Shown: positions 9,627 through 32,361 of the stretch, in pieces
Position numbering within the stretch: the stretch's first letter is position 1
Layout: every line of letters begins with the position of its first letter
Source of the DNA: a virus
Reading direction: 5' to 3' (one strand)
IMG/VR virus record: IMGVR_UViG_3300030399_000018
DNA: 52,734 nucleotides
Position numbers and translations under genes: made by a program
Notes under the pieces: model-generated
Told to the model about the DNA's origin: nothing
Databases searched by the model: none
The model's input: only the letters and a program-made list of their open reading frames with translations

Positions 9627-10075
9627 TTAATATATTCCTCGATCCTATTTAAAATCGTAGGATCTGCGTCTATGGTTCCAACATACCAATTACACTGGTG
9701 ACACAATAATCCTCTAACCCGTCCAGTAGTATGATTATGATCCACATGGAGTGGGATCTTACCTGGTTTGCGGTTACATAATTTACACCCACCGTTCTGA
9801 GTGTCTAGCATCCTGGCATAGTCTTCCAGGGTTAATCCGTAGTTCTTCAATAGCATTCTACTTCTACGAATTTCTGGATTGTCCTTCTCTTTTTGCTTTC
9901 TTCTATCTTGGATGACTTTGGCCCTGTCAGGATTAGCAAGAATCCACTTAGTAGTATTCGAACGCTGATCTGATTTATAGACTGGATTCGTTTCCTTTAG
10001 CCATTTATCATAACAGGGTTTGCACATACCTCGTGCTTGGTGTTTTCGTTGTGGATGACACTCAGCTAGTTTCAT
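9623..10075 (-). CDS. Recombination endonuclease VII family protein
   Basis: CKLCNRKPGKIPLHVDHNHTTGRVRGLLCHQCNWYVG is the typical Endonuclease_7 core. There is also an N-terminal CxxC-type cluster (GMCKPCYDKW). Confidence 0.85.
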   Translation of the reverse strand: MKLAECHPQRKHQARGMCKPCYDKWLKETNPVYKSDQRSNTTKWILANPDRAKVIQDRRKQKEKDNPEIRRSRMLLKNYGLTLEDYARMLDTQNGGCKLCNRKPGKIPLHVDHNHTTGRVRGLLCHQCNWYVGTIDADPTILNRIEEYIK

Positions 10076-10442
10076 TCAGAATGCCGTTTGGTCCGTATGG
10101 AAGGTCGTCCCATTTGGTCCCCTTCTTGCTCAGAGCAGAAAGAAACATCCAACAGCAACCAAGATGATCAATGTGAGGTAGGCCCGATTCGCCATCAAGA
10201 TACTCACCTTTCTTGATAGCCCCAAGATGGCGCTCCATAGCAGCAACCAGCCTACTATAGTTAATACCTTTGGCCCAGTTCCAACTGGCGTATTTATTTG
10301 AACCAAAGGTAAGTACGGCAGCCAGCCCCTCCAATGCCCAAGGATCGAGTAGATCCATTCTAGGCTTGTCTGTATCATGCTTGGTCCCACCTGCATGTTG
10401 ATCGGGGAATAGATCCCCTTGTGCGTCTGCTTTAAATCCCAT
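10062..10442 (-). CDS. DUF5664-type (dATP/dGTP diphosphohydrolase N-terminal-like, MazG-related) nucleotide pyrophosphohydrolase
   Basis: KHDTDKPRMDLLDPWALEGLAAVLTFGSNKYASWNWAKG...SGLPHIDHLGCC matches my memory of that family (K.D.GKPR..L.P..al..va.VltfGa.KY...NW..G). I chose the ATG at 10442; the ORF track starts at 10502. Confidence 0.7.
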   Translation of the reverse strand: MGFKADAQGDLFPDQHAGGTKHDTDKPRMDLLDPWALEGLAAVLTFGSNKYASWNWAKGINYSRLVAAMERHLGAIKKGEYLDGESGLPHIDHLGCCWMFLSALSKKGTKWDDLPYGPNGILNETS

Positions 10443-10641
10443 TGTACAAGTCTCCGGTATCGGCCAGAGAGCTGGTGTAATCGCCGCGATTAATTCTATC
10501 ATTTAGATCCAGTATCATTGACGCCAAGATGTGAAACGTACTGGTGTTGGCGTGTTGCCAGTCAGTCAACGTACCGCTAACCAATGCTCGGCCAGCGAGT
10601 TCAATCATCTGCTGCAACTCAGTATAATCTTTAGCTTCCAT
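10432..10641 (-). CDS. Hypothetical protein
   Basis: 69-aa ORF in the operon frame chain. Its start overlaps the upstream gene end. Confidence 0.45.
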   Translation of the reverse strand: MEAKDYTELQQMIELAGRALVSGTLTDWQHANTSTFHILASMILDLNDRINRGDYTSSLADTGDLYNGI

Positions 10642-13700: not shown

Positions 13701-13730
13701 ATCTTAACACAATTTAATAAGGCTTGTCAA
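13701..13730 (-). promoter_or_regulatory. Sigma70-like promoter upstream of the SSB gene
   Basis: The minus strand reads TTGACA (13730-13725), an 18-nt spacer, then TAAGAT (13706-13701). It is embedded in the last codons of the polymerase gene. Confidence 0.5.
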
Positions 13731-14436
13731 CTTTAACCATATCAAGAGTGTTCATTCCGACTTTCACTTCACAAGCTAAGGGCACTGTCCAGTTAATCTT
13801 GAACGTCCGATTCAGGTTGCTCACCAGATCGTCGAACACCTCGTAGAACAGCTTTACAACTTGGTCCACATACTTCTTCTCGCAATCCACTACGATTGAA
13901 TCGTGGACCGTTGAAATCAACAGTACCGGAATACCAAGAGCCTTCAACCGGCGTGAGAAGCTGATACGGGCGATCATCATTACATCGGCACCTGTCCCCT
14001 GTACTGGGTAGTTTGTTAGAGTTGTCCATGGTACTTTGAGTTCTCCGTAGCGATCTCGCGTGATTTTGATAGTCCACTCTCGTCCTGACGGACCGACGAG
14101 CGGTCGACCAGCCATGACCTCTTCCGCCCAGTGCTTATGTGTCGCATCAAGTACTTTGTATTTACCATAGAATTTTTCTCCTATTCCGTCCCAGAAAGCG
14201 GGACTGGTGGACACGTGCATGAAATCCGGATCCACTGAAAAGGCGTAGCCGCTCCCTCGGAAAATAGTGCGGAAGAGGTAGATCTTTGCAATGAATCGAC
14301 TAGGTAGGTTAAAGGCTTTTTCGTTGAGGCTGTGCGGATCTTGGCCTTCAACAATCTCCTTGATCCCAACCGGGTCTTGGCTAAGCTGCAAGGCTGTGCG
14401 CCACTCCAATTGGCTGGCATCACACGCTACCAGCAT
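13714..14436 (-). CDS. Family-A DNA polymerase, C-terminal fragment (palm motif A onward)
   Basis: It starts MLVACDASQLEWR, which corresponds to Pol I motif A (DYSQIELR). Downstream it has QGTGADVM (motif B region) and VHDSIVVD (motif C, HD). Confidence 0.9.
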   Translation of the reverse strand: MLVACDASQLEWRTALQLSQDPVGIKEIVEGQDPHSLNEKAFNLPSRFIAKIYLFRTIFRGSGYAFSVDPDFMHVSTSPAFWDGIGEKFYGKYKVLDATHKHWAEEVMAGRPLVGPSGREWTIKITRDRYGELKVPWTTLTNYPVQGTGADVMMIARISFSRRLKALGIPVLLISTVHDSIVVDCEKKYVDQVVKLFYEVFDDLVSNLNRTFKINWTVPLACEVKVGMNTLDMVKVDKPY

Positions 14437-14563
14437 TAGATTCCTTCAGATCCCGTGTCTTGACAGCATGACTCAAAGCCTCATATTCTTCCTTACTCAA
14501 GTTCATTATGAAGTCCTGGAAGGTGTCAGAATACTCCAGCTTTACAAAGATATTACTCAACAT
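14420..14563 (-). CDS. Small ORF (47 aa) filling the gap between the two polymerase fragments
   Basis: Hand translation gives MLSNIFVKLEYSDTFQDFIMNLSKEEYEALSHAVKTRDLKESNAGSV. Its stop overlaps the start of the polymerase C-terminal fragment. Confidence 0.3.
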   Translation of the reverse strand: MLSNIFVKLEYSDTFQDFIMNLSKEEYEALSHAVKTRDLKESNAGSV

Positions 14564-14585
14564 CTTTTCTTCGTTGACAACGTGC

Positions 14586-15725
14586 TTAGTCACTATATCT
14601 GCTCACGAATAAATCAGCAGCTTCCCCATCAAAGTTCTGCTGGTTGGGTTTAGAAGCACTGAGGCGACCGCTGACGGCCACGCATTGATTCAGTTGACCG
14701 TGGAGTACACCTGGTTCCCACATCTGCTCTCGGTTGACTTTGATGATCCCTTCATATGTTTTAGACAATAGGGTATCAAGTCGCACCTGACGCTGGATCA
14801 ACTCAATGATTGCTTTGGTAGCTTTGTTGCCTTTGAGTTTGAGTAAGGTATCTTGATTCGTTGCCCAGAATCCCTCCTTCTTTAGTTCCGACCCACGCAG
14901 GGGTGTCACTAATCTGGGAAGTTCGTGGAGAATCTCGATGTTCTTATATTTAGGTTCCCCTACTCGTGCTCCGCTTTTGAAGAAGCCGATGTGCTCCTTA
15001 CCTTCCTCCACAATTGTTCCACCATAAAGAAAGGCAGATAGCTGATCCCCACTACCGAAGTTAATAGGCACGTTAGGATAAATGCTAGATAACTTCTCGG
15101 TGATGCGTTGTATCTCTCCCTTAATCTCCTCCGCACGTTTATGACATAACTCCTCGTCGTACACCAAACCATTTTTCTCCATAGTCTGAAGGATCAATAG
15201 ATCCATGCCCATGAGATTGACCAAACGTTTCTGGTTTTGTGTTAACAGTTCTTGTTGTTTATGATACAAGGCCAAGGTCATCTTGGCATCCCAGATAGCA
15301 TACTCCTCTAGGATAGGCCACGGCACATCTTCCGTTTGGATTCCTTTAGCCCAATACTCCGTCTTAACAACGTCTAACTTATGTCCAAGATCATGCCGCA
15401 CGAGGGCATCCTCCAACGAAGGATACCTCTCCGTTTGTCTACTTAAGATGAACTCGCCGGTTTGGGTGTCGTGGACTCGGCAGATTTCTGGGACTTCGAT
15501 TCCAATTTTGTTGAGCCAATGGATATCAAATTTAATGTTGTGCCCAATGAGAACTCTAGCTCCGAGAATCTTGTCTCTAAGGATTTCGATGCTATCCGAT
15601 GTAACCTTATTTGCTCCCGCAGAAGTCTCATCTGCCCAGCTATAACATACAATTGTGTTTCGTCTATCATAGGGCGCACCATTGTTGTGTGTGCTCGTCT
15701 CTACATCTACGCATAGTGCACTCAT
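14586..15725 (-). CDS. Family-A DNA polymerase, N-terminal fragment (3'-5' exonuclease, thumb and fingers up to the pre-motif-A region)
   Basis: VDVETS (Exo I) and IGHNIKFDIHWL (Exo II) are present. It ends SGRLSASKPNQQNFDGEAADLFVSRYSD, which corresponds to Pol I TGRLSS.DPNLQNIP....IR.AF. Confidence 0.9.
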   Translation of the reverse strand: MSALCVDVETSTHNNGAPYDRRNTIVCYSWADETSAGANKVTSDSIEILRDKILGARVLIGHNIKFDIHWLNKIGIEVPEICRVHDTQTGEFILSRQTERYPSLEDALVRHDLGHKLDVVKTEYWAKGIQTEDVPWPILEEYAIWDAKMTLALYHKQQELLTQNQKRLVNLMGMDLLILQTMEKNGLVYDEELCHKRAEEIKGEIQRITEKLSSIYPNVPINFGSGDQLSAFLYGGTIVEEGKEHIGFFKSGARVGEPKYKNIEILHELPRLVTPLRGSELKKEGFWATNQDTLLKLKGNKATKAIIELIQRQVRLDTLLSKTYEGIIKVNREQMWEPGVLHGQLNQCVAVSGRLSASKPNQQNFDGEAADLFVSRYSD

Positions 15726-15913
15726 TAATCATAAAATGCAGTCGTAGCTACGTCAAACCGGAAGCCCTTGATACCCTCGTCAATAAACTTCTGGGTGTGG
15801 GCACCGGCCGTCTCCACTGCGTCATCGTAGTTCATGAAGATAGCCACAGGAGTTTGATCTTTTCCATCACAGCTACGTACCACCACAAACGCCACTTCCT
15901 GTTTCTTAGTCAT
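15725..15913 (-). CDS. Hypothetical protein
   Basis: 62-aa ORF with 1-nt and 8-nt overlaps onto its neighbours. Confidence 0.5.
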   Translation of the reverse strand: MTKKQEVAFVVVRSCDGKDQTPVAIFMNYDDAVETAGAHTQKFIDEGIKGFRFDVATTAFYD

Positions 15914-16433
15914 GTTTAGCTATGTCCACAATAAGGTGAATGCGATCACTGTCGCCTTTGTTTTGTACACTGTGCATCAAAGAATTATCAAACCAGAAAG
16001 CTGTGCCACCTAGTTCGTTAAGGACTTCATCACCACACATAAAAATACTATCAGCATCGGTAAGGCATAAATGATATCGGTTATACGCATCCGTGTGGTC
16101 CTTGAGGTCTATATGGGGATAGATAACTTTCCCTGGCTTAAGGCGAGTCAACACCATGCGACCCAATACAGCGTCGTCTTCTGTGTACCCCAGATGTTCC
16201 AAGAAGTTATATACAAAATCTCCCAGCTTTTCAAGTTCCCCTGACGCTGGATAGCATCCTTTGTTATCTTCTTCATCAATATCAAAGATCAGCAGAATAT
16301 CATCAGCTTCTTTGTGAAAAGAATTACCTTTGGTTCGAATATCATTCTGGTTCCACAAATGTTCCTTGTCAGCTAGTTCCTCAAGAAGAGGTCCAGCGTC
16401 GAAGTCAAACTCCAACAACTTAAAGTTTTTCAC
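15906..16433 (-). CDS. Aspartyl/asparaginyl beta-hydroxylase-like 2OG-Fe(II) cupin oxygenase
   Basis: YPHIDLKDH...NRYHLCL...WFDNSLMHSVQNKGDSDRIHLIVD matches the Asp_Arg_Hydrox pattern (H.D ... R.H.PL ... FD.S..H...N....R..L..D). Confidence 0.75.
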   Translation of the reverse strand: MKNFKLLEFDFDAGPLLEELADKEHLWNQNDIRTKGNSFHKEADDILLIFDIDEEDNKGCYPASGELEKLGDFVYNFLEHLGYTEDDAVLGRMVLTRLKPGKVIYPHIDLKDHTDAYNRYHLCLTDADSIFMCGDEVLNELGGTAFWFDNSLMHSVQNKGDSDRIHLIVDIAKHD

Positions 16434-18515: not shown

Positions 18516-18838
18516 TATGGATTAGCATCCGGTATAACTGCCCGTCGTCCTTTGTCCCGCTCAAGGGCAAGTTGGCAGTGGTTGGTTTGAAACCAGCTAA
18601 GGAGCTTACACATCACACATCCCCACTCCTCACCGGCTAGCTGAGCCTTCGCAGAACGGCTTGAGATGGTCTCGTTGGGATCCCCGAAGGTCAGGGCATT
18701 ACCCAACTGGTCCAACGTCACCAGGACGTTCTTAAGCCAGCTATCACCTTGAACTGCTTGGTACTTCCCCAGGATAGCCAAGGGCATTCGGAGGAACGAG
18801 ACAGTGCAATTCTCCAGATATAGTTCTAGTTTGTTCAT
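18515..18838 (-). CDS. Hypothetical Cys-containing protein coupled to the protease gene
   Basis: 107-aa ORF with a 4-nt overlap onto the protease gene. It has DQLGNALTFGDPNETISSR and HC motifs but I did not recognise a family. Confidence 0.55.
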   Translation of the reverse strand: MNKLELYLENCTVSFLRMPLAILGKYQAVQGDSWLKNVLVTLDQLGNALTFGDPNETISSRSAKAQLAGEEWGCVMCKLLSWFQTNHCQLALERDKGRRAVIPDANP

Positions 18839-19509
18839 TTAATCAGTTCCAAAGACTTAGCTGGAGTCAAGAAGTTCAGGCCAAACGGGACGTCACTGCC
18901 CCGATCAGCTTTGAGTGCCAGTTCCGCGACACCAACGACACAACTATGTACGTCGTCAACAGCAGGACCACCGCTGTTTCCTGGAAGCATGACACCATCA
19001 TACTGAACAAAAGTAGCAAACTTACCAAGATCGTCCGTGAGGTCTCGACTCGGGTTGCTGACAGTGCCGAACGAAATAGTTTTACTTTGTGCAAGTGGTC
19101 CGCCCATTAAGTGTACTCGTTCCCCATAATATGCGGGGTCTTTACAAACAGGAAAACCTTTCGGCCAATTGATAGTCCCGTCTGTGGTCTTCAGCGTCAT
19201 CAGATCAGGACCAGTGGCAAAGTTCTCCCCGTCCCCTTTCTTTTCGATAACAAAGTCGTGCGGCTTGCCGTCCCCGAAGTCCACTACATAAGGGCTTGCT
19301 GGCACTGCCTGTCCCTCCTGACAGTGGGCTGCTGTAACTACCGTGTGGGTTCCAGCCAGTACCCAACCACTACAGTGGCCCAAGTCCATCGTAACCGACA
19401 CAACACTGTCTAGTTGTTTCTGGAGAGGCGGAAAGTAATGCACGTTAACTGCACATCCGGCCAGCAGAATAGCTAGGCCCACCATTGCACCTCGAATGAA
19501 ATTATTCAC
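18835..19509 (-). CDS. Secreted/lipoprotein trypsin-like (S1 family) serine protease
   Basis: It has a signal peptide with a lipobox (LAILLAGC), the His motif VTAAHC, and the Ser motif GNSGGP. Confidence 0.85.
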   Translation of the reverse strand: MNNFIRGAMVGLAILLAGCAVNVHYFPPLQKQLDSVVSVTMDLGHCSGWVLAGTHTVVTAAHCQEGQAVPASPYVVDFGDGKPHDFVIEKKGDGENFATGPDLMTLKTTDGTINWPKGFPVCKDPAYYGERVHLMGGPLAQSKTISFGTVSNPSRDLTDDLGKFATFVQYDGVMLPGNSGGPAVDDVHSCVVGVAELALKADRGSDVPFGLNFLTPAKSLELIK

Positions 19510-20622: not shown

Positions 20623-20924
20623 TTCTTCCTCTTTGGAGAGATATCAATGGTGATCACCTGGGGGATGTCGATGTAGAGTTGATGGATGTTCTCATCTCGT
20701 CCATTCGGCACTGGGGTTGACTTGGTTGATATAGTATTAGCCATCCTCGCCACCTCTTCCCCGCCGCGAGACTGCGCTCGTTTAATTGCAACTTGGGTTG
20801 CCTTCATTGCTTTTTTTATCTCCGGACACCTACAGTCAGGGTTGTCACACGCTGTGTTTTTCATCCACTCAAGCCGAGTCATCTTTCGATTGCACGGCTT
20901 ACAGAGTATGATTGGGTTAGTCAT
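20619..20924 (-). CDS. Hypothetical Cys-rich (zinc-binding-like) protein, 101 aa
   Basis: MTNPIILCKPCNRKMTRLEWMKNTACDNPDCRCPE. The ATG at 20924 overlaps the upstream stop (ATGACTAA). The longer ORF-track version is an out-of-frame run-on. Confidence 0.5.
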   Translation of the reverse strand: MTNPIILCKPCNRKMTRLEWMKNTACDNPDCRCPEIKKAMKATQVAIKRAQSRGGEEVARMANTISTKSTPVPNGRDENIHQLYIDIPQVITIDISPKRKK

Positions 20925-21162
20925 CTTGGGAGTATCCTTCTCCATACCGGTATCCTGGCCAAAGTGATGCGTCCTCACCGATGATCTCTCCCTCATCAAT
21001 CTCATCGATCTCTTCACCAACAGGGCCGTCATCAATGTCCGGAATGTCTTCAGCAACCGTGGAAAAACATCTGTTACACAGATCAACAAAATCACCACTA
21101 CTGCTGTACTTACGAGTGGATTCATAGTCGTTTAATAGTTTATCACACGCTAGACAGTGAAT
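20917..21162 (-). CDS. Hypothetical CxxC...CxxC protein with an acidic tail; start ambiguous (ATT at 21162 after a strong SD, or ATG at 21273/21261)
   Basis: HCLACDKLLNDYESTRKYSSSGDFVDLCNRCF, then a D/E-rich tail. AAGGAGG lies 8 nt upstream of the ATT at 21162. The ATG starts would overlap the GcvH-like gene by ~90 nt. Confidence 0.4.
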   Translation of the reverse strand: MHCLACDKLLNDYESTRKYSSSGDFVDLCNRCFSTVAEDIPDIDDGPVGEEIDEIDEGEIIGEDASLWPGYRYGEGYSQDD

Positions 21163-21175
21163 TTTGGGTTCCTCC

Positions 21176-21613
21176 TTAAGGGAGACGGACGTTAAGATTG
21201 TTGGCCATGTTCCCCACTGGGGCCTGCCTGGGCACCTCTGCTGCTTGCTCCTCAAAATCATACCAATCAACAAACTTCGGCTTTGTCACAGCTTTCCTCT
21301 TTACCTCAACCGCCTTGACTCCCTCCGGCAACACAGTGAAGATAACATCATCTTCCACCAGTCGATCCGGGAAGTTGCGGGCCTTGTCGTTAAAGAACGT
21401 GATACGTCCCGTAAGCGGACTCTTAAGACTCTCCAGCCCATCATTGGTCTCGATCACCATCATCGGTCCCCCTTTCTTAAGATTGATGGCGTCTGCCTGA
21501 AGGATGTGGAAACACTCTTGCATCTTCTCTTCCAGATACGTCTGACGAAGCCCAATGCTTACCACACCAGCCTTGTCAGTCTCTTGCCATATGTTGCCAC
21601 TAAACGTTTTCAT
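21176..21613 (-). CDS. Glycine-cleavage H-protein-like (lipoyl/biotinyl-type hybrid-barrel) protein lacking the lipoyl lysine
   Basis: A gapless 57-residue alignment to E. coli GcvH [57 protein letters not shown] conserves G, E, F, L, G, V, E, P, G, I, N and D. The E-S-V-K lysine aligns to E-T-N-D. Confidence 0.7.
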   Translation of the reverse strand: MKTFSGNIWQETDKAGVVSIGLRQTYLEEKMQECFHILQADAINLKKGGPMMVIETNDGLESLKSPLTGRITFFNDKARNFPDRLVEDDVIFTVLPEGVKAVEVKRKAVTKPKFVDWYDFEEQAAEVPRQAPVGNMANNLNVRLP

Positions 21614-21783
21614 CAACTTCTCCGGAACCCTTCGGTGATTTGTGCTTTAAACTGTTTAATATTTTCTTGCGATCCATACTCTTTTAGGCCCGCTGCTATA
21701 AGACTGAGAAGTAATCTGTGGTCTTCGAATGTTTCCACCTTAATGACGTAAGGTTGGAATCTGCTTTCCATCTGTACTTTCAT
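21613..21783 (-). CDS. Small hypothetical protein (56 aa) between the ATP-grasp and GcvH-like genes
   Basis: Hand translation gives MKVQMESRFQPYVIKVETFEDHRLLLSLIAAGLKEYGSQENIKQFKAQITEGFRRS. It has an ATGA overlap upstream and a TGATG overlap downstream. Confidence 0.35.
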   Translation of the reverse strand: MKVQMESRFQPYVIKVETFEDHRLLLSLIAAGLKEYGSQENIKQFKAQITEGFRRS

Positions 21784-22631
21784 TTACGTAGTTCCTTAAC
21801 AAAAGCCTCGGCGTATTTTTCTACAGTTGTACCTTCCAGGCCGGGGGCCGTGTTTACTTCTAGCACGAAGCACTGGTTGGCTTTCTCGTTCCATATAACA
21901 TCCACGGCTCCGAAGTCGAGTCCAAGTGCCCGAACTGTTGCGATAGCCATTCCTCGCATTTCCTCCGGCTCTTGAATGTCTTCACGACAATACACCCATC
22001 CTGTGTGATGGTTACGAACTTGGTAGTTCGTTTCGAAGTTGTCTGCAAGGTCTTTCCTCTTACGCTTCTCTTGGACATCAATCACTTCTCCAAAGGCAAC
22101 GTGGATTCGGAACTCTTTTTGTTTCTTGATGTACTTAACATACAACGGAGCCGCTGGTAAACTTGCTTCTTTGCCATTAGCAAGTACAATGCCGTCCCCA
22201 GAATGGCCAGTGAGCTTAGTACGACAAACAACAGCAACTCCGGAAGCAAGCCACTCACGGGCTGTGGGTCCACTAGTCGTGAACTCGGGGATACGTATTC
22301 CATCAACCTTCTCCAACTCTTGAAAAGTCCTAAGCTTATTACTTGCAAGGGACACTTGTTTATGATTGTTAACCCACTTAGAGATAGGAACTCCCCCCAC
22401 ATCCACAGGGGGCCCGCTGTTGCCCCAGTTCAAAAGAATCTTATTACCGGGAGTCAGGTTACGCTGACGATTGGGGCGATCAATGTACAGTCTGGGCACC
22501 CGGCACGACAATAACTGACCCATTCTTTCCGACAGGTTCCGCGCCGACTGACTCCCTATTTTGTACGGAAGGAGAAAGATGGGCGATGCGTTCCTGACTG
22601 GCCCGTTGGTTTTCAATGGCTTTCTTTGCAT
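21780..22631 (-). CDS. RimK/R2K-like ATP-grasp amide ligase (start at 22631 or 22736)
   Basis: ILLNWGNSG, VVCRTKLTGHSGDGIVL, EFRIHVAFGEVIDVQEKR and GLDFGAVDVIWNEKANQCFVLEVNTAPGLEG are typical ATP-grasp strands. The N-terminal PIFLLPYKIGSQSARNLSERMG looks like the pre-ATP-grasp domain, which forces an overlap with the upstream gene. Confidence 0.8.
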   Translation of the reverse strand: MQRKPLKTNGPVRNASPIFLLPYKIGSQSARNLSERMGQLLSCRVPRLYIDRPNRQRNLTPGNKILLNWGNSGPPVDVGGVPISKWVNNHKQVSLASNKLRTFQELEKVDGIRIPEFTTSGPTAREWLASGVAVVCRTKLTGHSGDGIVLANGKEASLPAAPLYVKYIKKQKEFRIHVAFGEVIDVQEKRKRKDLADNFETNYQVRNHHTGWVYCREDIQEPEEMRGMAIATVRALGLDFGAVDVIWNEKANQCFVLEVNTAPGLEGTTVEKYAEAFVKELRK

Positions 22632-24201
22632 TGTTGTAGCGCGCTTTGTAGCCTTCACCGAATTCTCCTTGTACCTTATCTGACACACAATCAGCACACA
22701 AAATGGTGGGCGTGTTCTTTGGTTCACCAGAACCAATGATGGACTTCATGGTGACTCGCGTAAACACACGCTCCCACTCTTCAACTTCACGGCCACACTT
22801 ATCACAGTGACAGTTGGCTTGGACATGCTCCCACAGCGGTTTGGGAATCCCCCCATCCGTGGCGTGGACCGGCACGTACTCCACGCGACGTACTTTGTGC
22901 ACGAAGATTGATCGACCACCAACAGTAACAGTCACAAACATTACATCCGCTTGAAGATTCTCACTGATCCACAGATGCAGAGAGGCATTGGTTACAGCTT
23001 GAGGCAGGAATCCGGTGATGTCTGCCATAGACTTGTCGGGTTGCATCACCTTACCAGCAAACCGATACCGCCCCGTGGGAGTTTGAGTCGTCTCCCAAAT
23101 CTTAATCAACAGCGGCTCGCCACGGACGAACTCAGGATCAGAGATCTTGATGTGACCTTGGGCAGCTTCTGCCTTTTCTTCCTCACTAGAGTTCGCTGGC
23201 TGGGGTGTACGGCCATCCGTCCCCGACGCGGTTAAGAGAGCGACGGGCCGGGTGGTTGAGTTCTCTTGTTGTTTCGATTTTGTCCTGTTCGCTAAGCCCG
23301 CTATGGACTTCAGACTTGCCTGACACACGCCTCCCGACTCGATCACACAATCTTTCGAAGGAGTCGTCAGGGCTTGTTGGAGACTCTTGATTTCCGGGGG
23401 GGTCTCCCTTTCCCCCGTTCTGAAAAAAGAGTGGGGTTCCCCATACCCTTCCCACTCGTCTCGTGCGTTGCCAACGAAAACACCCTGATTTTTATACACT
23501 TTCTCCGGCTTGAGTTCCACTTGCGTGATCTTGATGTTACCCAGGAAGTCAAACTCGTACAACTTACCTGGCTCAATGTCTTGAATGTCATCTATCTTGA
23601 TATTGCTGCGGCTTGTGGGCATTGCTGCGATCCACGGCTCACTGGACACCATGTAGGCATCGTCGGTGTACAGCAGACTCAACGGACGTTCCTTGTTGCG
23701 AACAGCATACAGCCGCTCCGTCTCGGTATTGTACCACACCAAAGCGAAAGCCCCATCAATGGTAGGGATGACGTTCTCCGGGGTATCCACAGCCAGCGCG
23801 TGAGCAATGGCGTGGGAGTCCACCTCAACCTTCTCCGTGGTTAGCTTGGTGTGATTCATCAAGGTGCCGTTGTGGACCAAGATGATGTGATTCTCCACAA
23901 ACGGGTGGGCGTTCTCACTGCTGGCTTCCCCAATGGTCTTGGCACGGTTGTGGCCGATAACAAACCGACCCCGATTGATAGCGTCGCTCTTAAACTTGGT
24001 CCATGCGTCCGTGCGGAATAGGTTGAACGGATTGGTTCCGATCTTGACAACTCGGGCCTCTTTGTTACGGAAGCCGGTCATTGCACCAGTGGCATCCTTA
24101 CCTCGTATGGTGTTGATAACAAGCATTTGTTCGAACAATTCAAGATGCTTGTGGGACAAGCCCATTCCTTTTCGCGCGATAATGCCACAAATACCACACA
24201 T
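22480..24201 (-). CDS. Class-II (Ntn) glutamine amidotransferase domain fused to a ~330-aa uncharacterised C-terminal region with a zinc-ribbon-like motif
   Basis: MCGICGI (N-terminal nucleophile Cys), GHNRAKTIG and ILVHNGTL are present. The C-terminal region has no recognisable family and contains CHCDKCG...ILCADC. Confidence 0.85.
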   Translation of the reverse strand: MCGICGIIARKGMGLSHKHLELFEQMLVINTIRGKDATGAMTGFRNKEARVVKIGTNPFNLFRTDAWTKFKSDAINRGRFVIGHNRAKTIGEASSENAHPFVENHIILVHNGTLMNHTKLTTEKVEVDSHAIAHALAVDTPENVIPTIDGAFALVWYNTETERLYAVRNKERPLSLLYTDDAYMVSSEPWIAAMPTSRSNIKIDDIQDIEPGKLYEFDFLGNIKITQVELKPEKVYKNQGVFVGNARDEWEGYGEPHSFFRTGERETPPEIKSLQQALTTPSKDCVIESGGVCQASLKSIAGLANRTKSKQQENSTTRPVALLTASGTDGRTPQPANSSEEEKAEAAQGHIKISDPEFVRGEPLLIKIWETTQTPTGRYRFAGKVMQPDKSMADITGFLPQAVTNASLHLWISENLQADVMFVTVTVGGRSIFVHKVRRVEYVPVHATDGGIPKPLWEHVQANCHCDKCGREVEEWERVFTRVTMKSIIGSGEPKNTPTILCADCVSDKVQGEFGEGYKARYNNAKKAIENQRASQERIAHLSPSVQNRESVGAEPVGKNGSVIVVPGAQTVH

Positions 24202-24204
24202 GTC

Positions 24205-25107
24205 TTAGCCCCTTGTCTTAACAAAATAAGCTGAATCGGCCAGCCGCTCTGGGATCAGAGCATTTAAGGTAGCTGGTTTAGCAAAAGCAGATCGAACGTT
24301 TCCAACGGCGTGTTTCACATCTTCCCACGATTCAAACTTCAGGTATTGGGAATCTTGACCAAAGATCTGGCTAATCAAGATGGACATATCCGTTGACTTG
24401 GACAGCCCCAACACCGTCTTGCGGATCGTGCCAGTTTCCGTGGCCTTACAAAACTCCACCAACTTGGTGAGCAAGCGTACCCAGATAGTGACCTTGTGGT
24501 GGTCGAACGTTCCATGCATCTGGCGGAACTCCAGCGTGCCCTTGTCCCGCAACGGCAGGATGTTCAGGCCCGTGTATTTGGACCACTTCTCCGTCGACAT
24601 TGCCAAATCCTCCGTCGCCATGAACGTCAACAGATTGGTGTCGAACAGAGGCACACAGTAGATGTTCTTGGCACGACCACGGCCCGTAAACTTGTACAAC
24701 AACGGTTCGATGCACGCATACATCAGAATGATGTCGACAACTTTCTCTGTCGCCAGATCCTGCATGTTCAAATGCACGTGAATCGAAGTGCGGGGGCTGA
24801 AGCACGAGTCTTTCTTCAAGGTGTCCTGCAACAATTCCTGCAAGATGTGAGGTGCATACTTCGCTGGCATTGGCTGGCTGATAAACTCAACCCCACCGTT
24901 GCGAAGAGATCCGTCTGCTGTTGGAATCCACGCCCCTGAATTAGGTGTTGAAGTATCTTGAGCGTTCTCCACCTCTACCTCAATGCCCACCAACACCTCA
25001 CTTTCTATAGGATCGCCGGGAACAGGGAACGTGTCAAACGTCTTTTTCCAGGCCGGGTAGATCTTTACCGGCTTCATCCCAAAATACTCTACGATGGTTT
25101 TTCCCAT
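24205..25107 (-). CDS. Amidoligase_2-family (GCS/glutamine synthetase-like COOH-NH2 ligase) enzyme
   Basis: VGIEVEVEN, ADGSLRNGGVEFISQPM and TSIHVHLNM match the 'putative amidoligase enzyme' pattern. I chose the ATG at 25107 (MGKTIVEY, SD GAGG); the longer ORF would overlap the upstream gene. Confidence 0.8.
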   Translation of the reverse strand: MGKTIVEYFGMKPVKIYPAWKKTFDTFPVPGDPIESEVLVGIEVEVENAQDTSTPNSGAWIPTADGSLRNGGVEFISQPMPAKYAPHILQELLQDTLKKDSCFSPRTSIHVHLNMQDLATEKVVDIILMYACIEPLLYKFTGRGRAKNIYCVPLFDTNLLTFMATEDLAMSTEKWSKYTGLNILPLRDKGTLEFRQMHGTFDHHKVTIWVRLLTKLVEFCKATETGTIRKTVLGLSKSTDMSILISQIFGQDSQYLKFESWEDVKHAVGNVRSAFAKPATLNALIPERLADSAYFVKTRG

Positions 25108-25114
25108 GATAACC

Positions 25115-25735
25115 TCAGGCTCTGTTAAAGATTTTCGTGAGTTGATCCATGTATGCAGCCTCGTAAATATTGGTAACTCGGCCAGCAGAGGATACCCGAG
25201 CCACAGGCAACTGCCAATGGAAAAGCACGTGGTCAGGAGCTTTAAACATGGAAAGAGCCAAGCTGTAATTATTGTCCAGTGCCACACTTCTCACCTTCCC
25301 CGTTTCCAATACAGCCAAAGCCTCCTTCACAGTGTAGATCTTGTGGTCAAATGCCGCTTCGATGGCCTTGATGTCCCAACCCACGTGTTGACCACAAATC
25401 CGTCGGGTGGTGTTCTCCAGCACGGAGTTATCCGAACAAATCCCACGGCGGTACTGACGAGTGGGCTTGCGGCGGAACACTACAGCATCTTTCTTGAATT
25501 GAAAGACACCTACCGGAGGATACTTGAACTTGATGCTGTGTCCCTCCGATCCCATGTTAATGGTAATGGCACCATACTCCGCCGAATCCAGATGAAGTAC
25601 CCCAATCTTGGAGGCACTTTCTTCCACCTCCCGGATCTTCACTAGACACTCTTTGTCCTTCTCCTCCATGTGAAGCCACACGAAGGTTCCCTCCCACCGA
25701 CGGCGGAAGTCCTGAATAACTTCGGAATTATTCAT
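25115..25735 (-). CDS. Hypothetical protein inside the ligase operon
   Basis: ORF of about 206 aa. The ATG at 25735 is preceded by GGGGA and overlaps the upstream stop (ATGAATAA). I did not recognise a family. Confidence 0.55.
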   Translation of the reverse strand: MNNSEVIQDFRRRWEGTFVWLHMEEKDKECLVKIREVEESASKIGVLHLDSAEYGAITINMGSEGHSIKFKYPPVGVFQFKKDAVVFRRKPTRQYRRGICSDNSVLENTTRRICGQHVGWDIKAIEAAFDHKIYTVKEALAVLETGKVRSVALDNNYSLALSMFKAPDHVLFHWQLPVARVSSAGRVTNIYEAAYMDQLTKIFNRA

Positions 25736-25916
25736 CAGCATCCCCAATATCTATGTGAATCTTCCCATCATCAGACAAATACACCGACAATAGGTATAAG
25801 TTGGCCCTGTCTGAGGTGTCAAATACTACTTCGTGATTGTGGAGATGTTCAACAGCTTTCAGGCTGTCAAAGCCATCTACTTCGCCTAGGCCGTTAAGTA
25901 ATTCTCCTAGAGTCAC
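25728..25916 (-). CDS. Small acidic hypothetical protein (62 aa) inside the ligase operon
   Basis: ORF with a 4-nt overlap upstream and an 8-nt overlap downstream. Confidence 0.45.
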   Translation of the reverse strand: MTLGELLNGLGEVDGFDSLKAVEHLHNHEVVFDTSDRANLYLLSVYLSDDGKIHIDIGDADE

Positions 25917-26689
25917 AGCCCAAACTCCACTTTGAGTTTTGCCAACAACACCTTGTCAGAGTTATTGATGCAGTTCTGAATGTCCGAGGCTTGGCCTTCG
26001 GTGAATTTACCGCCGTTGCGGACAAACTCAAGTGCCTTGTCCGTCTGATCCCACACCCACTGGATTCGATCATCCGACTCAATCCAGGCGTTGGAAGCCG
26101 TGCGGTACTCCACACCGTAGCTCTTCTTACGGAAGGCACCAGCACGCCCGTAAAGCTCTCTGCGGCCCATATCTTCGTCGAAGTCCAGCATCAAACAGCC
26201 CACGAACAGGTCCATTGCTTGAATGACACCAAGCACATCATCACCATCGTTGAGAGCGATGTGGACGTGACCACCACACGAACGGAGATTCTTGTTCGCA
26301 GCGTTGGGACGCGGATTCATGTCCCCATCCATCCAAGCATTGAAGTCAGGCTCACAGCCAAACGTCTGAGCTTCGAATGACTGGAGTTGGTCGTCGTCAA
26401 ACACCGCCGACGGCTTGACCAGCATCTCAAGGCCCAACTCTGCTGCAAGGTCTTTGATCCAGGTCTTGTTCTTGTTGATATGCAAAATGAAGTCAGCAGC
26501 GGACTTGCACGGGGGCGTGTTGAACTCCACTGTTACATTGTCTTCTTGGACCGCATTGCCCTCTTCATCAATCGGGCGTGGGAACTGCTTCGATCCTCCC
26601 ACCAAACCGACGCTGCTGATAAACTTCTGCGCTGCGGGGTCAAACAAGAAGACTTCAGGGTCCGTACCGAGCATCGTGATGTTATTCAT
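25913..26689 (-). CDS. phiEco32-like COOH-NH2 ligase type 2 (GCS-superfamily amidoligase)
   Basis: MLGTDPEVFLFD, QEDNVTVEFNTPP, FGCEPDFNAW, RSCGGHVHIAL, RRELYGRAGAFRKKSYGVEYRTASNAW. The ATG at 26689 overlaps the upstream stop (ATGAATAA). Confidence 0.8.
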   Translation of the reverse strand: MNNITMLGTDPEVFLFDPAAQKFISSVGLVGGSKQFPRPIDEEGNAVQEDNVTVEFNTPPCKSAADFILHINKNKTWIKDLAAELGLEMLVKPSAVFDDDQLQSFEAQTFGCEPDFNAWMDGDMNPRPNAANKNLRSCGGHVHIALNDGDDVLGVIQAMDLFVGCLMLDFDEDMGRRELYGRAGAFRKKSYGVEYRTASNAWIESDDRIQWVWDQTDKALEFVRNGGKFTEGQASDIQNCINNSDKVLLAKLKVEFGL

Positions 26690-27266
26690 GGAATACAACC
26701 TCGCAAAAGTGAATGATATTACCCGTGTTTTGGTTAACAAACAACATCTCTTGGAACTTGGCCTGCCTCTTGGCCCAGTCATACAGATACTCGAAATGCA
26801 TCCGAGGCTCTCTTTCCACCTCCGGCAAGACAACTTCTGTGGCGTCAACGGGGTGGTCGCGATCCCGCCGTGTTTCCACAAAGTTAAACACCCAACGCTG
26901 TGATGAATATCGACGAACGCTCTTCTGCAAAGTGGCCATCATGGCATCTACAAACTCAAACTCTAGGCAGTTGTCGTAACCGAAGCCGTTGATCTGATTC
27001 ATCGCACAACAGTAGTTGTACGGAGACACAGTAAACCAGAGCAGAGCCCGTCCTTCGACCAGCACTTGGATAAGTGTGTCTGGTTCACGTTCGGGAGCAC
27101 ACTGACGAGCAAAATAATCCGACGCCGCCGCCGAGATTGTCAGTCCTTTTACTGTCTGCCTGAGGCATTGGCCAAGTCGTTCCACAACCAGCTTGTTGTC
27201 CTTCAGGAAATCCTCGGCAACAAGGTGTAAGGCTGGGTTTAGATGATCACGTGAGGCTTGATTCAC
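26682..27266 (-). CDS. Uncharacterised protein, paralog A of the CC[GA] / N-x-N-[ST]-G-N family
   Basis: PYNYCCAMNQINGFG ... RWVFNFVETR ... LFVNQNTGNIIHF. The motifs are shared in the same order with 27946-28323 and 30213-30932. Confidence 0.6.
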   Translation of the reverse strand: MNQASRDHLNPALHLVAEDFLKDNKLVVERLGQCLRQTVKGLTISAAASDYFARQCAPEREPDTLIQVLVEGRALLWFTVSPYNYCCAMNQINGFGYDNCLEFEFVDAMMATLQKSVRRYSSQRWVFNFVETRRDRDHPVDATEVVLPEVEREPRMHFEYLYDWAKRQAKFQEMLFVNQNTGNIIHFCEVVFHE

Positions 27267-27949
27267 AGGACATACTCCCGAACAAGTTTCATGCAGTATT
27301 GGACAAAAGGATCACGACGCGGGTTGCTGTGAAACTCCGGATGGCCCTGGATCCCAAGAGCTTTGATCTTCGGATACCAGACAATTTCGGCCTCCTTTTT
27401 GTCTGCCATCTTTAAATCGTTTTCGCTGGCCTCAGTGATGTAGATACTGCTGCGGCGGGGATGTGCCCAGGCAATCAATTCATGTTCAACATCATATGGA
27501 TACTGCATCTGGTGATGTACCGACGATGTGGCCAAGACGTAACCATCCTTGGTCATCATATCATGAGTACGACCATGATTATCCACATGCTGAATGAGAG
27601 AACCGCCAGCCAAGGCGCAAACCAACTGAGCACCACGACATACGCCAATAATGGGAATACCGCGATCAATAGCCGTGCGACAGGCACTCGCTTCGATAAC
27701 GTCCCGACGACTAGGCGAGTTGGGCGCATATGATCCCCCGATGGCGGCCGCTTCATTGTAGTAGCTTGGGGAGATATCCTCACCGCCCCAGATGACCAGA
27801 GCATCAATCTCAGCCCCGTCAGCTATGTCCTGAGACGTAACAAGCATCGAGTGGGGATACACCTGATCGAACGGCTCTAGCGCCCCTGTACCACGTCCTA
27901 CGTGTCCTAACGTTAGTACTTTCGTCTTCTCTGCTACTTCCATTTTCAT
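27263..27949 (-). CDS. Class-I glutamine amidotransferase-like / peptidase C26 (gamma-glutamyl hydrolase, PuuD-like)
   Basis: WGGEDISPSYY, RRDVIE, IPIIGVCRGAQLVCALAGGSLIQH (nucleophile elbow Cys), SSVHHQ and GIQGHPEF (His) are present. Confidence 0.85.
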   Translation of the reverse strand: MKMEVAEKTKVLTLGHVGRGTGALEPFDQVYPHSMLVTSQDIADGAEIDALVIWGGEDISPSYYNEAAAIGGSYAPNSPSRRDVIEASACRTAIDRGIPIIGVCRGAQLVCALAGGSLIQHVDNHGRTHDMMTKDGYVLATSSVHHQMQYPYDVEHELIAWAHPRRSSIYITEASENDLKMADKKEAEIVWYPKIKALGIQGHPEFHSNPRRDPFVQYCMKLVREYVL

Positions 27950-28323
27950 TCCTTTCTTAGGTTAGACAAGAGGATCCACGAATCCACCATGTTTCCGCTG
28001 TTGGGATTTATAAACTCAGCCACATGTAGGGCGTCCTCGTGTTTCGATACATACTTGCGCAGTACCTCATACTCATACTCTTCTGCCAGGGGCAAGGTCA
28101 GCGGGTCTCCTGAAAATTCCCAACCATTTCCAATTCTCTGGCGCACGAAGTTGAATATGATGGGGCGGCCCTCTGCCGCCTCGACCAGCTCCCCGACCAG
28201 CCCTTTGGGTGTCTTCGACACTACGTCGGCATATTCATCTACACCAAAGTCCCCGGCCTCATACACACCACAACAATATGGTAATGTTGAATATCGAGCA
28301 TCCAGCATTTTAGCCCACGACAA
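27946..28323 (-). CDS. Uncharacterised protein, paralog B of the CC[GA] / N-x-N-[ST]-G-N family
   Basis: LPYCCGVYEAGDFG ... RPIIFNFVRQR ... EFINPNSGNMVDSW. Confidence 0.6.
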   Translation of the reverse strand: MSWAKMLDARYSTLPYCCGVYEAGDFGVDEYADVVSKTPKGLVGELVEAAEGRPIIFNFVRQRIGNGWEFSGDPLTLPLAEEYEYEVLRKYVSKHEDALHVAEFINPNSGNMVDSWILLSNLRKE

Positions 28324-31471: not shown

Positions 31472-32071
31472 TTATGAGTTTCCTTGTTTCTTAAACTCTG
31501 CTTCAACTACTTTGAGGAAATACTCGGCTTGGAGTTGTTTCAGGTGGGGTTTCGTAGTCTCCGCCGCCGCCCACGCCGCCGCCGCCGCCGCCGCCTCCGC
31601 CTCCGCCGCCGCCCTCGCCGCCCACGCCGCCGCCCACCCCGCCGCCCTTGCCGGCCACGCCGAGCCCGCCGCCGCCTCCGCCGCCGCCGCCTCCGCCGCC
31701 GGGGCTTTTGACTTGTCCCCGGTAATCAGAAAGTCCCGAACAATGCCTGGGGGTGTCCAGAGATCCATAACATCGACTGCAAACTGTCGAGCAGATGATT
31801 GCAATAAATCCGTAGCGTCTATGGTGGCGATGATTTTGCGCTGTTTCGCAACAACCTTATTGGTGTGTTTTTCTTCAATGCCAATCAATTCAACCTTATG
31901 CAAAATGTTGCCTGGGGCAAACTGTAGGGCATCAAAGGGGTGATCTGATGCATGGAGCCCCCGATAACAAATCTTTGGGGTTCCTGGAAACACCAACCAC
32001 TCCCCAATTGGAGGAATAGGCGTTCCGTCACGGAGCCTGTCATTTGTAAAGTGATAATAAATTTTACTCAT
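31472..32071 (-). CDS. Hypothetical protein with an N-terminal GLHAS-motif domain and a C-terminal Ala/Trp repeat tract
   Basis: The ATG at 32071 (MSKIYYHFTNDRLRDG) forms an ATGA overlap with the upstream gene. Motifs: CYRGLHASDHPFDAL, then AAEAAAAEAAAGSAWPARAAGWAAAWAARAAAEAEAAAAAAAWAAAE. Confidence 0.6.
   Translation of the reverse strand: MSKIYYHFTNDRLRDGTPIPPIGEWLVFPGTPKICYRGLHASDHPFDALQFAPGNILHKVELIGIEEKHTNKVVAKQRKIIATIDATDLLQSSARQFAVDVMDLWTPPGIVRDFLITGDKSKAPAAEAAAAEAAAGSAWPARAAGWAAAWAARAAAEAEAAAAAAAWAAAETTKPHLKQLQAEYFLKVVEAEFKKQGNS
31561..31702 (-). repeat. Imperfect (GCG)n / (CGC)n trinucleotide tract encoding the Ala/Trp repeat
   Basis: About 142 nt are almost entirely G and C (ccgccgccgcccacgccgccgccgccgccgccgcctccgcc...). 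All frames on both strands are open across it. Confidence 0.9.
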
Positions 32072-32361
32072 TTTCCTTCTCCAGTTTCCAACATCCAGTC
32101 GATCCAAGCAAGGCGAGCATGTTTGGCTTCTTTGGAAGTGAGATGAGTCTTGCGAACGGCAAGATTCCACTGTTCAAGAGAGCGATAGCCCACGAGCCGA
32201 TCCATTATATAATTCCGTAAGCGCAGATGGGCGATATATGCTTTGCACACTCTCTGTTCATGCAAAACTGTGGCGAGCAGAGCGATGCAAATATATTTTT
32301 GGGAACCTGCGGCTATTCGGATCCTGGCCCCTTTCAACAACTCTCGTTCAAGTTTGTTCAC
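32068..32361 (-). CDS. Hypothetical protein
   Basis: 97-aa ORF with 4-nt overlaps at both ends. Confidence 0.55.
   Translation of the reverse strand: MNKLERELLKGARIRIAAGSQKYICIALLATVLHEQRVCKAYIAHLRLRNYIMDRLVGYRSLEQWNLAVRKTHLTSKEAKHARLAWIDWMLETGEGK

Follow-up and report, generated by a model that had tools for sequence, protein, structure and literature searches.

An intact, divergent copy of a known phage amidoligase, amidotransferase and ATP-grasp gene module in an IMG/VR virus genome

Gene content of the locus

The IMG/VR virus record IMGVR_UViG_3300030399_000018, a stretch of 52,734 nucleotides (nt) referred to here as the window, carries a tightly packed set of minus-strand genes for amide-bond enzymes between positions 21,176 and 28,323. 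A first-pass annotation had recognized five such enzymes and proposed them as an uncharacterised modification system. The gene packing and the enzyme families are borne out, but the novelty is not: the window holds an intact, divergent copy of a known phage amidoligase/amidotransferase/ATP-grasp module. One of its ligases belongs to a Pfam family named ‘phiEco32-like’ (PF14395) and is found by tBLASTn in 316 phage records, another (Amidoligase_2) in 336, and the full set is present in LUZ24-, phiEco32- and PA11-like phages. In the lineage of the window, the module comprises six conserved genes in a fixed order, given here in the direction of transcription.

27263 to 27949, minus strand: GAT-I, a class-I glutamine amidotransferase (GATase) / Peptidase_C26-type Cys-His-Glu amidohydrolase, 228 amino acids (aa)
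25913 to 26689, minus strand: COOH-NH2 ligase type 2, phiEco32-type (GCS2/YbdK-like, glutamine synthetase (GS) fold), 258 aa
25115 to 25735, minus strand: beta-barrel protein (‘unk210’), 206 aa
24205 to 25107, minus strand: Amidoligase_2, a GS-fold carboxylate-amine ligase, 300 aa
23497 to 24201, minus strand: N-terminal nucleophile (Ntn) class-II glutamine amidotransferase domain of GAT-II, residues 1-235 of a 573-aa protein (gene 22480-24201)
21780 to 22631, minus strand: RimK-like ATP-grasp ligase, 283 aa

All five enzymes lie where the first-pass annotation had placed them and score above the curated Pfam cut-offs against which they were judged. The motifs it quoted are all present in the translations, and the catalytic residues are intact, being invariant in the family alignments. 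GAT-I matches Peptidase_C26 with 68.4 bits (cut-off 20.5; 9.9e-19) and GATase with 42.5 bits (7.4e-11), and its triad C104/H203/E205 is invariant in 25 homologues. Its best NCBIfam matches are gamma-glutamyl-CDP-amidate hydrolase (Cj1417-type) and PuuD, both far below cut-off. The COOH-NH2 ligase matches PF14395 with 32.2 bits (cut-off 25; 8.6e-8) and, among NCBIfam models, YbdK weakly. Amidoligase_2 (PF12224, 42.4 bits, cut-off 22; 1e-10) retains the invariant residues E43, E45 and E47 (E-x-E-x-E), H110 and H112 (H-x-H), and E193 and R195 (E-x-R); a search of its profile against PDB sequences found no solved relative. In GAT-II, the match to GATase_6 (57.3 bits, cut-off 27; 2.1e-15) covers residues 1-231 only, with a further match to GATase_7 (3e-10). 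The N-terminal Cys nucleophile (C2), H84-N85-R86, the oxyanion residues N111-G112 and D128 are invariant. PHROG matches of the module enzymes are far stronger than the Pfam ones, namely phrog_3815 for the COOH-NH2 ligase (4.6e-69), phrog_7469 for Amidoligase_2 (5.7e-39), phrog_2599 for the ATP-grasp enzyme from residue 18 (1.9e-78), and one at 1.5e-54.

The ATP-grasp enzyme had been called RimK/R2K-like; its best matches are to RimK, while R2K membership is conjectural. It scores 26.7 bits against the RimK Pfam model (cut-off 21; 4.9e-6), and its family profile matches RimK structures at E ~2e-9 and D-Ala-D-Ala ligases weakly. The general Pfam scan gave no D123/CDC123 match, with no R2K-specific model applied. 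Residues K99, E173, K189, D244, E258 and N260 are invariant in the family alignment, so that the enzyme shares the ATP-grasp fold and all nucleotide- and Mg-binding residues with RimK, MptN, CofF, LysX and ArgX, which are its best PDB and NCBIfam matches; RimK and MptN are the nearest characterised relatives, a place taken by PuuD and the Cj1417-type hydrolases for GAT-I and by YbdK/GCS2 for the COOH-NH2 ligase. In contrast to RimK, it has no RimA or RimB partner in the window and falls far below the RimK family cut-offs (37.7 bits vs 143.4 for TIGR00768, rimK_fam; 31 vs 331 for PRK10446).

Distribution and gene order

To place the module among its relatives, IMG/VR was scanned with a profile built from a three-sequence alignment, which gave 224 confirmed loci, of which 80 were kept; a single COOH-NH2 ligase sequence had found nothing. 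The full gene set is present in most of these 80 loci. Core counts come from iterative searches of each window protein against all open reading frames (ORFs) of 82 loci, among which homologues of the COOH-NH2 ligase occur in 82, GAT-II in 78, Amidoligase_2 and the ATP-grasp enzyme in 76 each, and GAT-I in 75. The neighbourhood check that the first-pass annotation had proposed is thus positive: the co-occurrence of the five enzymes in 75-82 of 82 loci, in conserved order, is not due to chance.

Cultured carriers include Pseudomonas Bruynoghevirus (LUZ24-like) and PA11/TC6 phages, Escherichia Kuravirus (phiEco32, SU10, and Bas88 and Bas94 of the BASEL collection), Salmonella phage 7-11, and phages of Proteus, Aeromonas, Vibrio, Cellulophaga and Salinivibrio. 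Among cultured phages, the closest relative is Alcaligenes phage vB_Af_QDWS535, with 51% and 36% identity for Amidoligase_2 and the COOH-NH2 ligase. In the annotated regions of QDWS535, TC6, SU10 and DL54, the genes are laid out in the same way and immediately precede primase/helicase. Cellular genomes hardly contribute. In GTDB, sampled at one genome per species (185,579 bacterial and archaeal genomes), the COOH-NH2 ligase has 13 matches, all on contigs of metagenome-assembled genomes; those of 26-104 kb are the size of phage genomes and the remainder are short fragments. Set against 316 phage records, these 13 matches indicate that the module is essentially phage-restricted.

With G1 for GAT-I, C for the COOH-NH2 ligase, U for the beta-barrel protein, A for Amidoligase_2, G2 for GAT-II and R for the ATP-grasp enzyme, the order G1-C-U-A-G2-R of the window recurs in 40 loci, and a second order, variant B, (G1-)R-G1-C-G2-A, in 23. 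Both keep G1 beside C and A beside G2, while R moves; GAT-I is almost always found just upstream of the COOH-NH2 ligase. Variant-B loci (L031, L035, L037, L040, L051, L061, L079 and others) place the ATP-grasp gene first. In these loci, GAT-II is ~640 aa long and Amidoligase_2, extended by 165 aa at its N-terminus, ~600 aa; GAT-I is present in up to three paralogues, and a beta-barrel protein is not recognisable.

The beta-barrel protein as a sixth core member

Among the interleaved ORFs that the first-pass annotation had listed as unknown, the 206-aa ORF belongs to the conserved core. Its homologues occur in 45 of the 82 loci, and in 43-45 they lie between the COOH-NH2 ligase and Amidoligase_2 genes. 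Alcaligenes, TC6, DL54 and SU10 phages have an ORF of similar size (182-205 aa) at the same position; the one in SU10 is undetectable by profile. The start at 25735 is backed by a 100% identical protein (P0001). Searches gave 44 close homologues of the protein and, at 50% identity, 930 clusters; among the 150 clusters listed, nearly all are stand-alone proteins of ~200 aa. One long match in the representative search, P0215 (2,519 aa, 42 repeats), was discarded as a low-complexity artefact. A fusion of the beta-barrel into the long Amidoligase_2 of variant-B loci was also considered and rejected (hhalign probability <1%).

The AlphaFold2 (AF2) model of the protein consists of small beta-barrels and a few helices, with a predicted local distance difference test score (pLDDT) of 93.3 and a predicted TM-score (pTM) of 0.86. 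Foldseek against the PDB gave no significant match, the best being Tudor/SH3/Sm-like barrels (E = 0.07, TM ~0.2). Matches in BFVD, a set of predicted viral structures, are solely uncharacterised phage proteins, and a profile search of PDB sequences returned nothing usable. The protein has no obvious catalytic constellation; its invariant residues are mostly Arg, Gly, Pro and aromatic. It may act as an adaptor or scaffold.

The C-terminal region of GAT-II

The GAT-II protein extends well past its catalytic domain, and the gene ends in the following feature.

22480 to 23169, minus strand: C-terminal region of GAT-II, comprising an oligonucleotide/oligosaccharide-binding (OB) fold, a Cys4 Zn ribbon, a long helix and a disordered conserved tail ending TVH

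No Pfam domain was found past residue 231 in eight homologues, nor any known fused synthase or acceptor domain (SIS, PRTase, PP-loop). As the C-terminus alone gave no homologues, the full-length protein was searched and the matches trimmed. Beyond the Ntn domain, the alignment contains a variable low-complexity linker and a conserved beta-rich block, with C466, C469, C502 and C505 invariant. An AF2 model of residues 345-573 (pLDDT 88.2) consists of a barrel, a Zn ribbon, a long helix and a disordered tail. Among the top 50 Foldseek matches in the PDB, almost all are OB folds that bind single-stranded DNA (ssDNA), including hSSB1, PriB, SsbA, RPA, the PolC OB domain and MCM10. The likeness is modest, with E 1.8e-3 to 5e-2, probability ~1.0 and a target-normalised TM-score of 0.45-0.58. 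The barrel is mildly basic, with a median isoelectric point of 9.0. Single-stranded DNA-binding (SSB) proteins share the architecture of an OB fold, a flexible linker and a conserved tip, which is a resemblance and not membership of that family.

In 102 of 120 homologues (P0045-P0164), the tail ends in His or Gln, usually as [TS][LIV][HQ]-COOH, and a second motif, (A/S)(V/I/L)Q(D/N)(G/R)E, lies ~25 residues upstream of the end; in the window, the tail is encoded at 22480-22575 (minus strand) and terminates in ...PGAQTVH. The final 152 nt of the GAT-II gene (22480-22631, minus strand) overlap the 5′ end of the ATP-grasp gene out of frame, and relatives have overlaps of 77-197 nt. Automatic gene callers start the ATP-grasp gene at 22523 instead (247 aa). 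The longer overlap looks real, because the ATP-grasp N-terminus encoded there (PIFLLPYKIGSQSARNLSE) matches the beta1-alpha1 element of the family. The H/Q ending is retained in relatives without gene overlap and lost where Amidoligase_2, not the ATP-grasp gene, comes after GAT-II, which makes it a protein-level feature tied to the ATP-grasp neighbour. Taken with the models, these features suggest that GAT-II carries, beyond its Ntn domain, an SSB-like OB fold with a Zn ribbon and a disordered tail, and that this region likely serves as a handle for substrates or partners.

Gene junctions, inserts and accessory genes

Start/stop overlaps were part of the first-pass description. The module genes are joined by two ATGA, two GTGA and two ATGAATAA junctions and by gaps of 7 nt and 3 nt; the quoted ‘TAATG’ is not found. 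Several further ORFs lie between or after the core genes.

26682 to 27266, minus strand: ORF of 194 aa that fills a variable slot between the GAT-I and COOH-NH2 ligase genes, outside the conserved module
25728 to 25916, minus strand: 62-aa ORF, not conserved, called as a gene by independent gene callers
21613 to 21783, minus strand: 56-aa ORF, not conserved, called as a gene in independent assemblies
21176 to 21616, minus strand: GcvH-fold-like acidic protein, a clade-specific accessory
20917 to 21162, minus strand: small Cys4 Zn-ribbon protein with an acidic C-terminal tail, ~81 aa if it starts at ATT

The 194-, 62- and 56-aa ORFs have no homologue in any of the 82 loci and are therefore not pathway members, although the first-pass annotation had listed them with the operon. 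The 194-aa protein has no Pfam, PHROG, NCBIfam or PADLOC match, and the 62-aa ORF is missing from the closest relatives, L003 and L004. Among 74 loci, the slot between GAT-I and the COOH-NH2 ligase is closed without a gap in 44 and occupied by unrelated ORFs in 30. The 194- and 62-aa ORFs each begin with a GTGA overlap and end in a ATGAATAA overlap with the following conserved gene (26682-26689 and 25728-25735), and these matching junctions may reflect similar insertion events.

The GcvH-like protein, also noted in the first pass, occurs in only 10 of the 82 loci, a small clade, directly after the ATP-grasp gene. Its resemblance to GCV_H is weak and below the Pfam cut-off (E = 0.0029, 17.9 bits vs 22.2). 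At the hairpin tip, the window protein has D59 in place of the lipoyl-lysine and its homologues have D, E, Y or R, so that the protein cannot be lipoylated.

The small Zn-ribbon family is found in 35 of the 82 loci, between the ATP-grasp and primase genes. In the window its gene probably starts at ATT 21162-21160. A perfect AAGGAGG lies 8 nt upstream of this ATT, immediately after the GcvH-like stop codon, and this start yields the family-type N-terminus ‘MRCxxC’ (‘M-x-C-x-x-C’); the sole canonical start, TTG 21273, would lengthen the protein by 37 non-conserved residues and create an overlap of 98 nt. The C-termini of the family are variable, and the protein has no sequence similarity to LysW or other solved structures. 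It is possibly an accessory, a carrier or a gene of the replication module.

Genome and replication context

At least 23 metagenomic contigs encode a GAT-II protein identical to that of the window, and those listed in the 50-200 kb class measure ~52.6-52.9 kb. The window is therefore an essentially complete phage genome that recurs in the environment. No nucleotide-level relative turned up among 50,697 phage records when the 7.1-kb region was compared with them by megablast.

As the first-pass annotation had noted, the module sits just upstream of replication genes (primase, helicase and PolA follow directly). The genes downstream of the module are, in list form:

primase; DnaB-like helicase; HNH endonuclease; split family-A DNA polymerase; 5′-3′ exonuclease
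endonucleases I and VII; MazZ-like dNTP pyrophosphohydrolase; HD hydrolase

The module is not, however, the self-contained operon that had been supposed. Between ~33 kb and 8.4 kb, the ORFs of the window form one uninterrupted minus-strand series. The leftward genes are headed by a promoter that matches the sigma-70 consensus perfectly (TTGACA, 17 nt, TATAAT, with the TG extension; 36459-36431, minus strand), and strong intrinsic terminators on the same strand, at 35180-35154 and 33007-32983, precede the long array. No strong terminator was found between ~33.0 kb and the replication genes, and the module genes are thus part of a long leftward unit.

Other genes of this array, all on the minus strand, have features of their own. 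The family-A DNA polymerase (13714-15725) is split into 14586-15725 (exonuclease and N-terminal polymerase) and 13714-14436 (C-terminal polymerase), ~150 nt apart. Inserted between the helicase and the DNA polymerase is an Asp/Asn beta-hydroxylase-type 2-oxoglutarate/cupin protein (15906-16433; Pfam 1.1e-13); it was considered as a module partner and rejected, with homologues in none of the 82 related loci. At 9078-10502, a protein with a MazZ-like dATP/dGTP diphosphohydrolase N-domain (1.5e-27) lies near an HD (YfbR-like) hydrolase, with endonuclease VII between them; as no PurZ-like gene was seen, this is not recognisable as a 2-aminoadenine set. The primase is closely followed downstream by a trypsin-like serine protease (Trypsin_2, 3.6e-14; 18835-19509) with a lipoprotein-like N-terminus (LAILLAGC). 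A DUF7666 protein (31472-32170) has a long, low-complexity, Ala/Glu/Trp-rich C-terminal half (AAEAAAAEAAAGSAWPARAAGWAAAWAARAAAEAEAAAAAAAW...). Searches of the window for tRNA genes found none, PADLOC defence models gave no match to ten proteins, and the LUZ24-type nick consensus TACTRTGMC has 0 sites against 1.35 expected.

Relation to known systems

Iyer, Abhiman, Burroughs and Aravind are said to have predicted the phage amidoligase neighbourhood by comparative genomics, in Mol Biosyst in 2009. The first-pass annotation knew of no reported product or target, and searches of the accessible literature likewise returned no experimental characterisation, product or target; they found this prediction and genome annotations only. 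Genome papers on phages UFV-P2, tf, TC6, SU10 and OM43 phages name module genes in this way, and according to a 2023 paper the functions ‘remain to be explored’ (PMC10580990). In SU10, the ATP-grasp, GAT and YtfP/gamma-glutamyl cyclotransferase (GGCT)-like proteins are detected by mass spectrometry and listed as early products (PMC4281155).

The phiEco32/LUZ24-type module agrees with the window in its families and their order (COOH-NH2 ligase, ~200-aa ORF, Amidoligase_2, Ntn-GAT, ATP-grasp) and in its place upstream of primase/helicase. The window copy is highly divergent from it: identity to cultured phages does not exceed 51%, and there is no match at the nucleotide level. It also differs in lacking GGCT and in having a GAT-II with a long low-complexity linker and a conserved H/Q tail. 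What is new here is the six-gene core, the hydrolase-ligase adjacency, the OB/Zn/tail region of GAT-II, the non-conserved inserts, the GcvH-like protein without a lipoyl lysine and the absence of GGCT.

Partial likenesses extend to several characterised pathways. The PuuA/PuuD and IpuC/IpuF gamma-glutamylation cycles also place a GS-superfamily ligase beside a Peptidase_C26 hydrolase. In contrast to PuuA/PuuD, the window ligase is YbdK/GCS2-like and not GlnA-like, its genes are phage-only, and no oxidising or decarboxylating enzymes lie in between. In the LysW/LysX system, a RimK-family ligase lies beside Zn-ribbon modules with flexible tails, as it does in the window with the GAT-II C-terminus and the small acidic Zn-ribbon protein. 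This likeness is architectural only, as there is no sequence similarity, the window tails end in H/Q or are variable and acidic instead of EDWGE, and LysZ-, LysY-, LysJ- and LysK-type enzymes are missing. Pupylation (Pup, PafA, Dop) shares GS-fold carboxylate-amine ligases and a disordered C-terminus that often ends in Gln. Half of the tails in the window family, however, end in His, which cannot be deamidated to an acid; moreover, they have no GGQ/GGE, and Pfam and NCBIfam show no PafA/Dop signature.

A putative pathway and its alternatives

The enzyme set tentatively points, as the best-supported reading, to a glutamine- and ATP-driven multi-ligase pathway that would build an amide-linked moiety (gamma-glutamyl, amidated or peptide-like) on an acceptor; judged from family membership, this is quite possible, if a little short of probable. 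Such a pathway would be cytoplasmic and would consume ATP and glutamine. Each of the two GS-fold ligases and the ATP-grasp enzyme would convert a carboxylate to an acyl-phosphate for coupling to an amine, allowing up to three successive amide bonds. Because the G1-C and A-G2 adjacencies are kept while R moves, the module appears to contain two hydrolase-ligase working pairs and a free-standing ATP-grasp enzyme. Each Cys-nucleophile amidohydrolase would serve its neighbouring ligase, the C26 enzyme the COOH-NH2 ligase and the Ntn-GAT Amidoligase_2. Within each pair, glutamine-derived NH3 could turn a carboxylate into a carboxamide, or a transient gamma-glutamyl handle could be removed. The RimK-like enzyme would add an amino acid, probably Glu, to a terminal carboxylate, and the beta-barrel protein, the SSB-like OB/Zn domain and the flexible GATase tail may hold the complex together or hold the acceptor. 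It is reasonable to infer, as the first-pass annotation did, that a gamma-glutamyl or peptide-like adduct is built and trimmed.

Several points weigh against this pathway. Every mechanistic step is read from family membership, and substrate specificities are not transferable because all NCBIfam matches fall far below the equivalog cut-offs. The pairing of hydrolases with ligases comes from adjacency alone, and the order G1-G2-C-A-R of PA11/TC6 breaks it. A GGCT (AIG2) gene accompanies the module in 30 of the 82 loci, and also in SU10, DL54 and the Alcaligenes phage, which speaks for gamma-glutamyl chemistry; it is common and not universal, however, and in the window a cluster profile from the 30 loci finds nothing in any frame. 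Kuravirus has no detectable homologue of GAT-I or of the beta-barrel protein, both of which are recognisable in the window, and the six-gene core is thus valid for this lineage and not for all carriers.

The acceptor could be of several kinds. A protein-bound or carrier-bound acceptor is possible, though less likely than not, and a free small molecule is possible to the same degree. Unlikely candidates are a nucleic acid or, equally, some other acceptor, and a cell-wall precursor is more doubtful still. Characterised relatives of four of the five enzymes act mostly on small molecules; they include YbdK/GCS2, the GS-like gamma-glutamyl-amine synthetases, C26 hydrolases (PuuD, the Campylobacter gamma-glutamyl-CDP-amidate hydrolase) and Ntn amidotransferases. 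RimK itself is a protein modifier, and the adaptor-like parts of the module also fit a macromolecular or carrier-bound acceptor. An unlikely variant, modelled on LysW, is that the GAT-II C-terminus, the small Zn-ribbon protein or the GcvH-fold protein acts as an amino-group or carboxyl carrier. On it, the RimK-like and GS-fold ligases and the two amidohydrolases would put together, and then set free, a new peptide-like molecule of gamma-glutamyl or amidated type; otherwise they would place a new kind of mark on a replisome-associated protein or nucleic acid. If true, this would be a phage-made metabolite or modification without a known counterpart.

A somewhat unlikely alternative is that the module tags or amidates a host or phage protein for host takeover, with the RimK-like ligase, and possibly the GS-fold ligases, adding Glu or other residues and the beta-barrel and OB/Zn domains acting as adaptors. 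Host proteins have been predicted as targets of phage R2K/RimK-type ligases (PMC4431377), the ATP-grasp enzyme has its best structural and sequence matches in the ribosomal protein S6 glutamate ligases (RimK), and the SU10 homologues are early proteins. The weak resemblance of the beta-barrel to peptide-binding Tudor/SH3-like barrels fits as well, as does the conserved disordered [TS][LIV][HQ] tail encoded right at the ATP-grasp gene. Yet no candidate target with a conserved acidic C-terminus was identified, and the mainly small-molecule chemistry of four of the five families does not favour a protein. Characterised GGCT and C26 hydrolases, moreover, act on free gamma-glutamyl amines. Very unlikely is a modification of peptidoglycan or envelope precursors, by amidation or extra stem-peptide residues, that would block superinfection. 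In Gram-positives, lipid II is amidated by a glutamine amidotransferase paired with a ligase (MurT/GatD), and the weak match of the ATP-grasp enzyme to D-Ala-D-Ala ligases would suit such a role. A passage in PMC10580990 credits Iyer et al. (2009) with a possible cell-wall or superinfection role for phiEco32. The enzyme families are, however, essentially confined to phages, the module bears domains of nucleic-acid or adaptor type and lies among early/replication genes instead of lysis or envelope genes, and Pfam and NCBIfam scans show no Mur-ligase-like or membrane-associated component.

DNA was also among the targets that the first-pass annotation had entertained, and a nucleobase hypermodification against restriction, with the OB/Zn domain bringing the enzymes to ssDNA at the replication fork, would explain why the module always abuts replication genes and why the GAT-II C-terminal domain is like the OB folds of SSB, PriB or RPA. 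Viral contigs with thymidine-hypermodification genes also carry amidoligase and amidotransferase genes as defined by Pfam (PMC8989533). The likeness to OB folds is modest, however, and the defining genes of the phage thymidine hypermodification clusters (Lee et al., NAR 2021/22), which share these amidoligase/amidotransferase genes, were not found among the window ORFs scanned. Pfam and PHROG scans of minus-strand ORFs, with the plus-strand structural ORFs mostly outside the scan, showed no thymidylate-synthase/hydroxymethylase homologue (dUMP/dCMP hydroxymethylase), TET/JBP, 5-hydroxymethyldeoxyuridine (5-hmdU) DNA kinase, aGPT-Pplase or DpdA, and hence no base-activating enzyme. HaeIII cuts the DNA of phage tf, a carrier of amidoligase and glutamine amidotransferase genes, and this DNA gives normal Sanger reads (PMC3517423). 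In addition, 6-bp palindromes are strongly avoided in the window, with a median observed/expected ratio of 0.72 vs 1.01 for non-palindromes (Mann-Whitney p = 2.7e-14). Where at least 5 copies of a hexamer are expected, 6 of 59 palindromes do not occur at all, compared with 0 of 3,958 non-palindromes; the missing ones, each expected in 5-14 copies, are CAGCTG, CTGCAG, GGTACC, CTCGAG, GAGCTC and GGCGCC, and CCGCGG is likewise absent. Pseudomonas phage DL54, E. coli phage SU10 and the loci L003, L016 and L035 avoid palindromes in the same way. Such avoidance is an indirect mark of DNA that type II restriction enzymes can cut. The restriction-modification resistance of Gordonclarkvirinae was set aside as support for DNA modification, the avoidance being equally strong in SU10, DL54 and the window; avoidance alone can explain the resistance of Kuravirus. 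Together, the avoided palindromes, the missing base-activating enzymes and the cutting of tf DNA by HaeIII make bulk DNA hypermodification improbable, while sparse or site-specific marks are still conceivable.

Significance

The module is a widespread multi-enzyme gene set of tailed phages, predicted more than 15 years ago, whose beta-barrel protein alone spans hundreds of metagenomic families. The window adds no new kind of system. Instead, it sharpens the question by separating core genes from inserts, by revealing two candidate hydrolase-ligase pairs and the OB/Zn domain with its tail, and by providing an argument against bulk DNA hypermodification. Cultured carriers exist in the LUZ24-like phages, PA11/TC6 and Kuravirus, including Bas88 and Bas94 of the BASEL collection. 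The identity of the product would reveal a new phage metabolite, protein modification or nucleic-acid modification.

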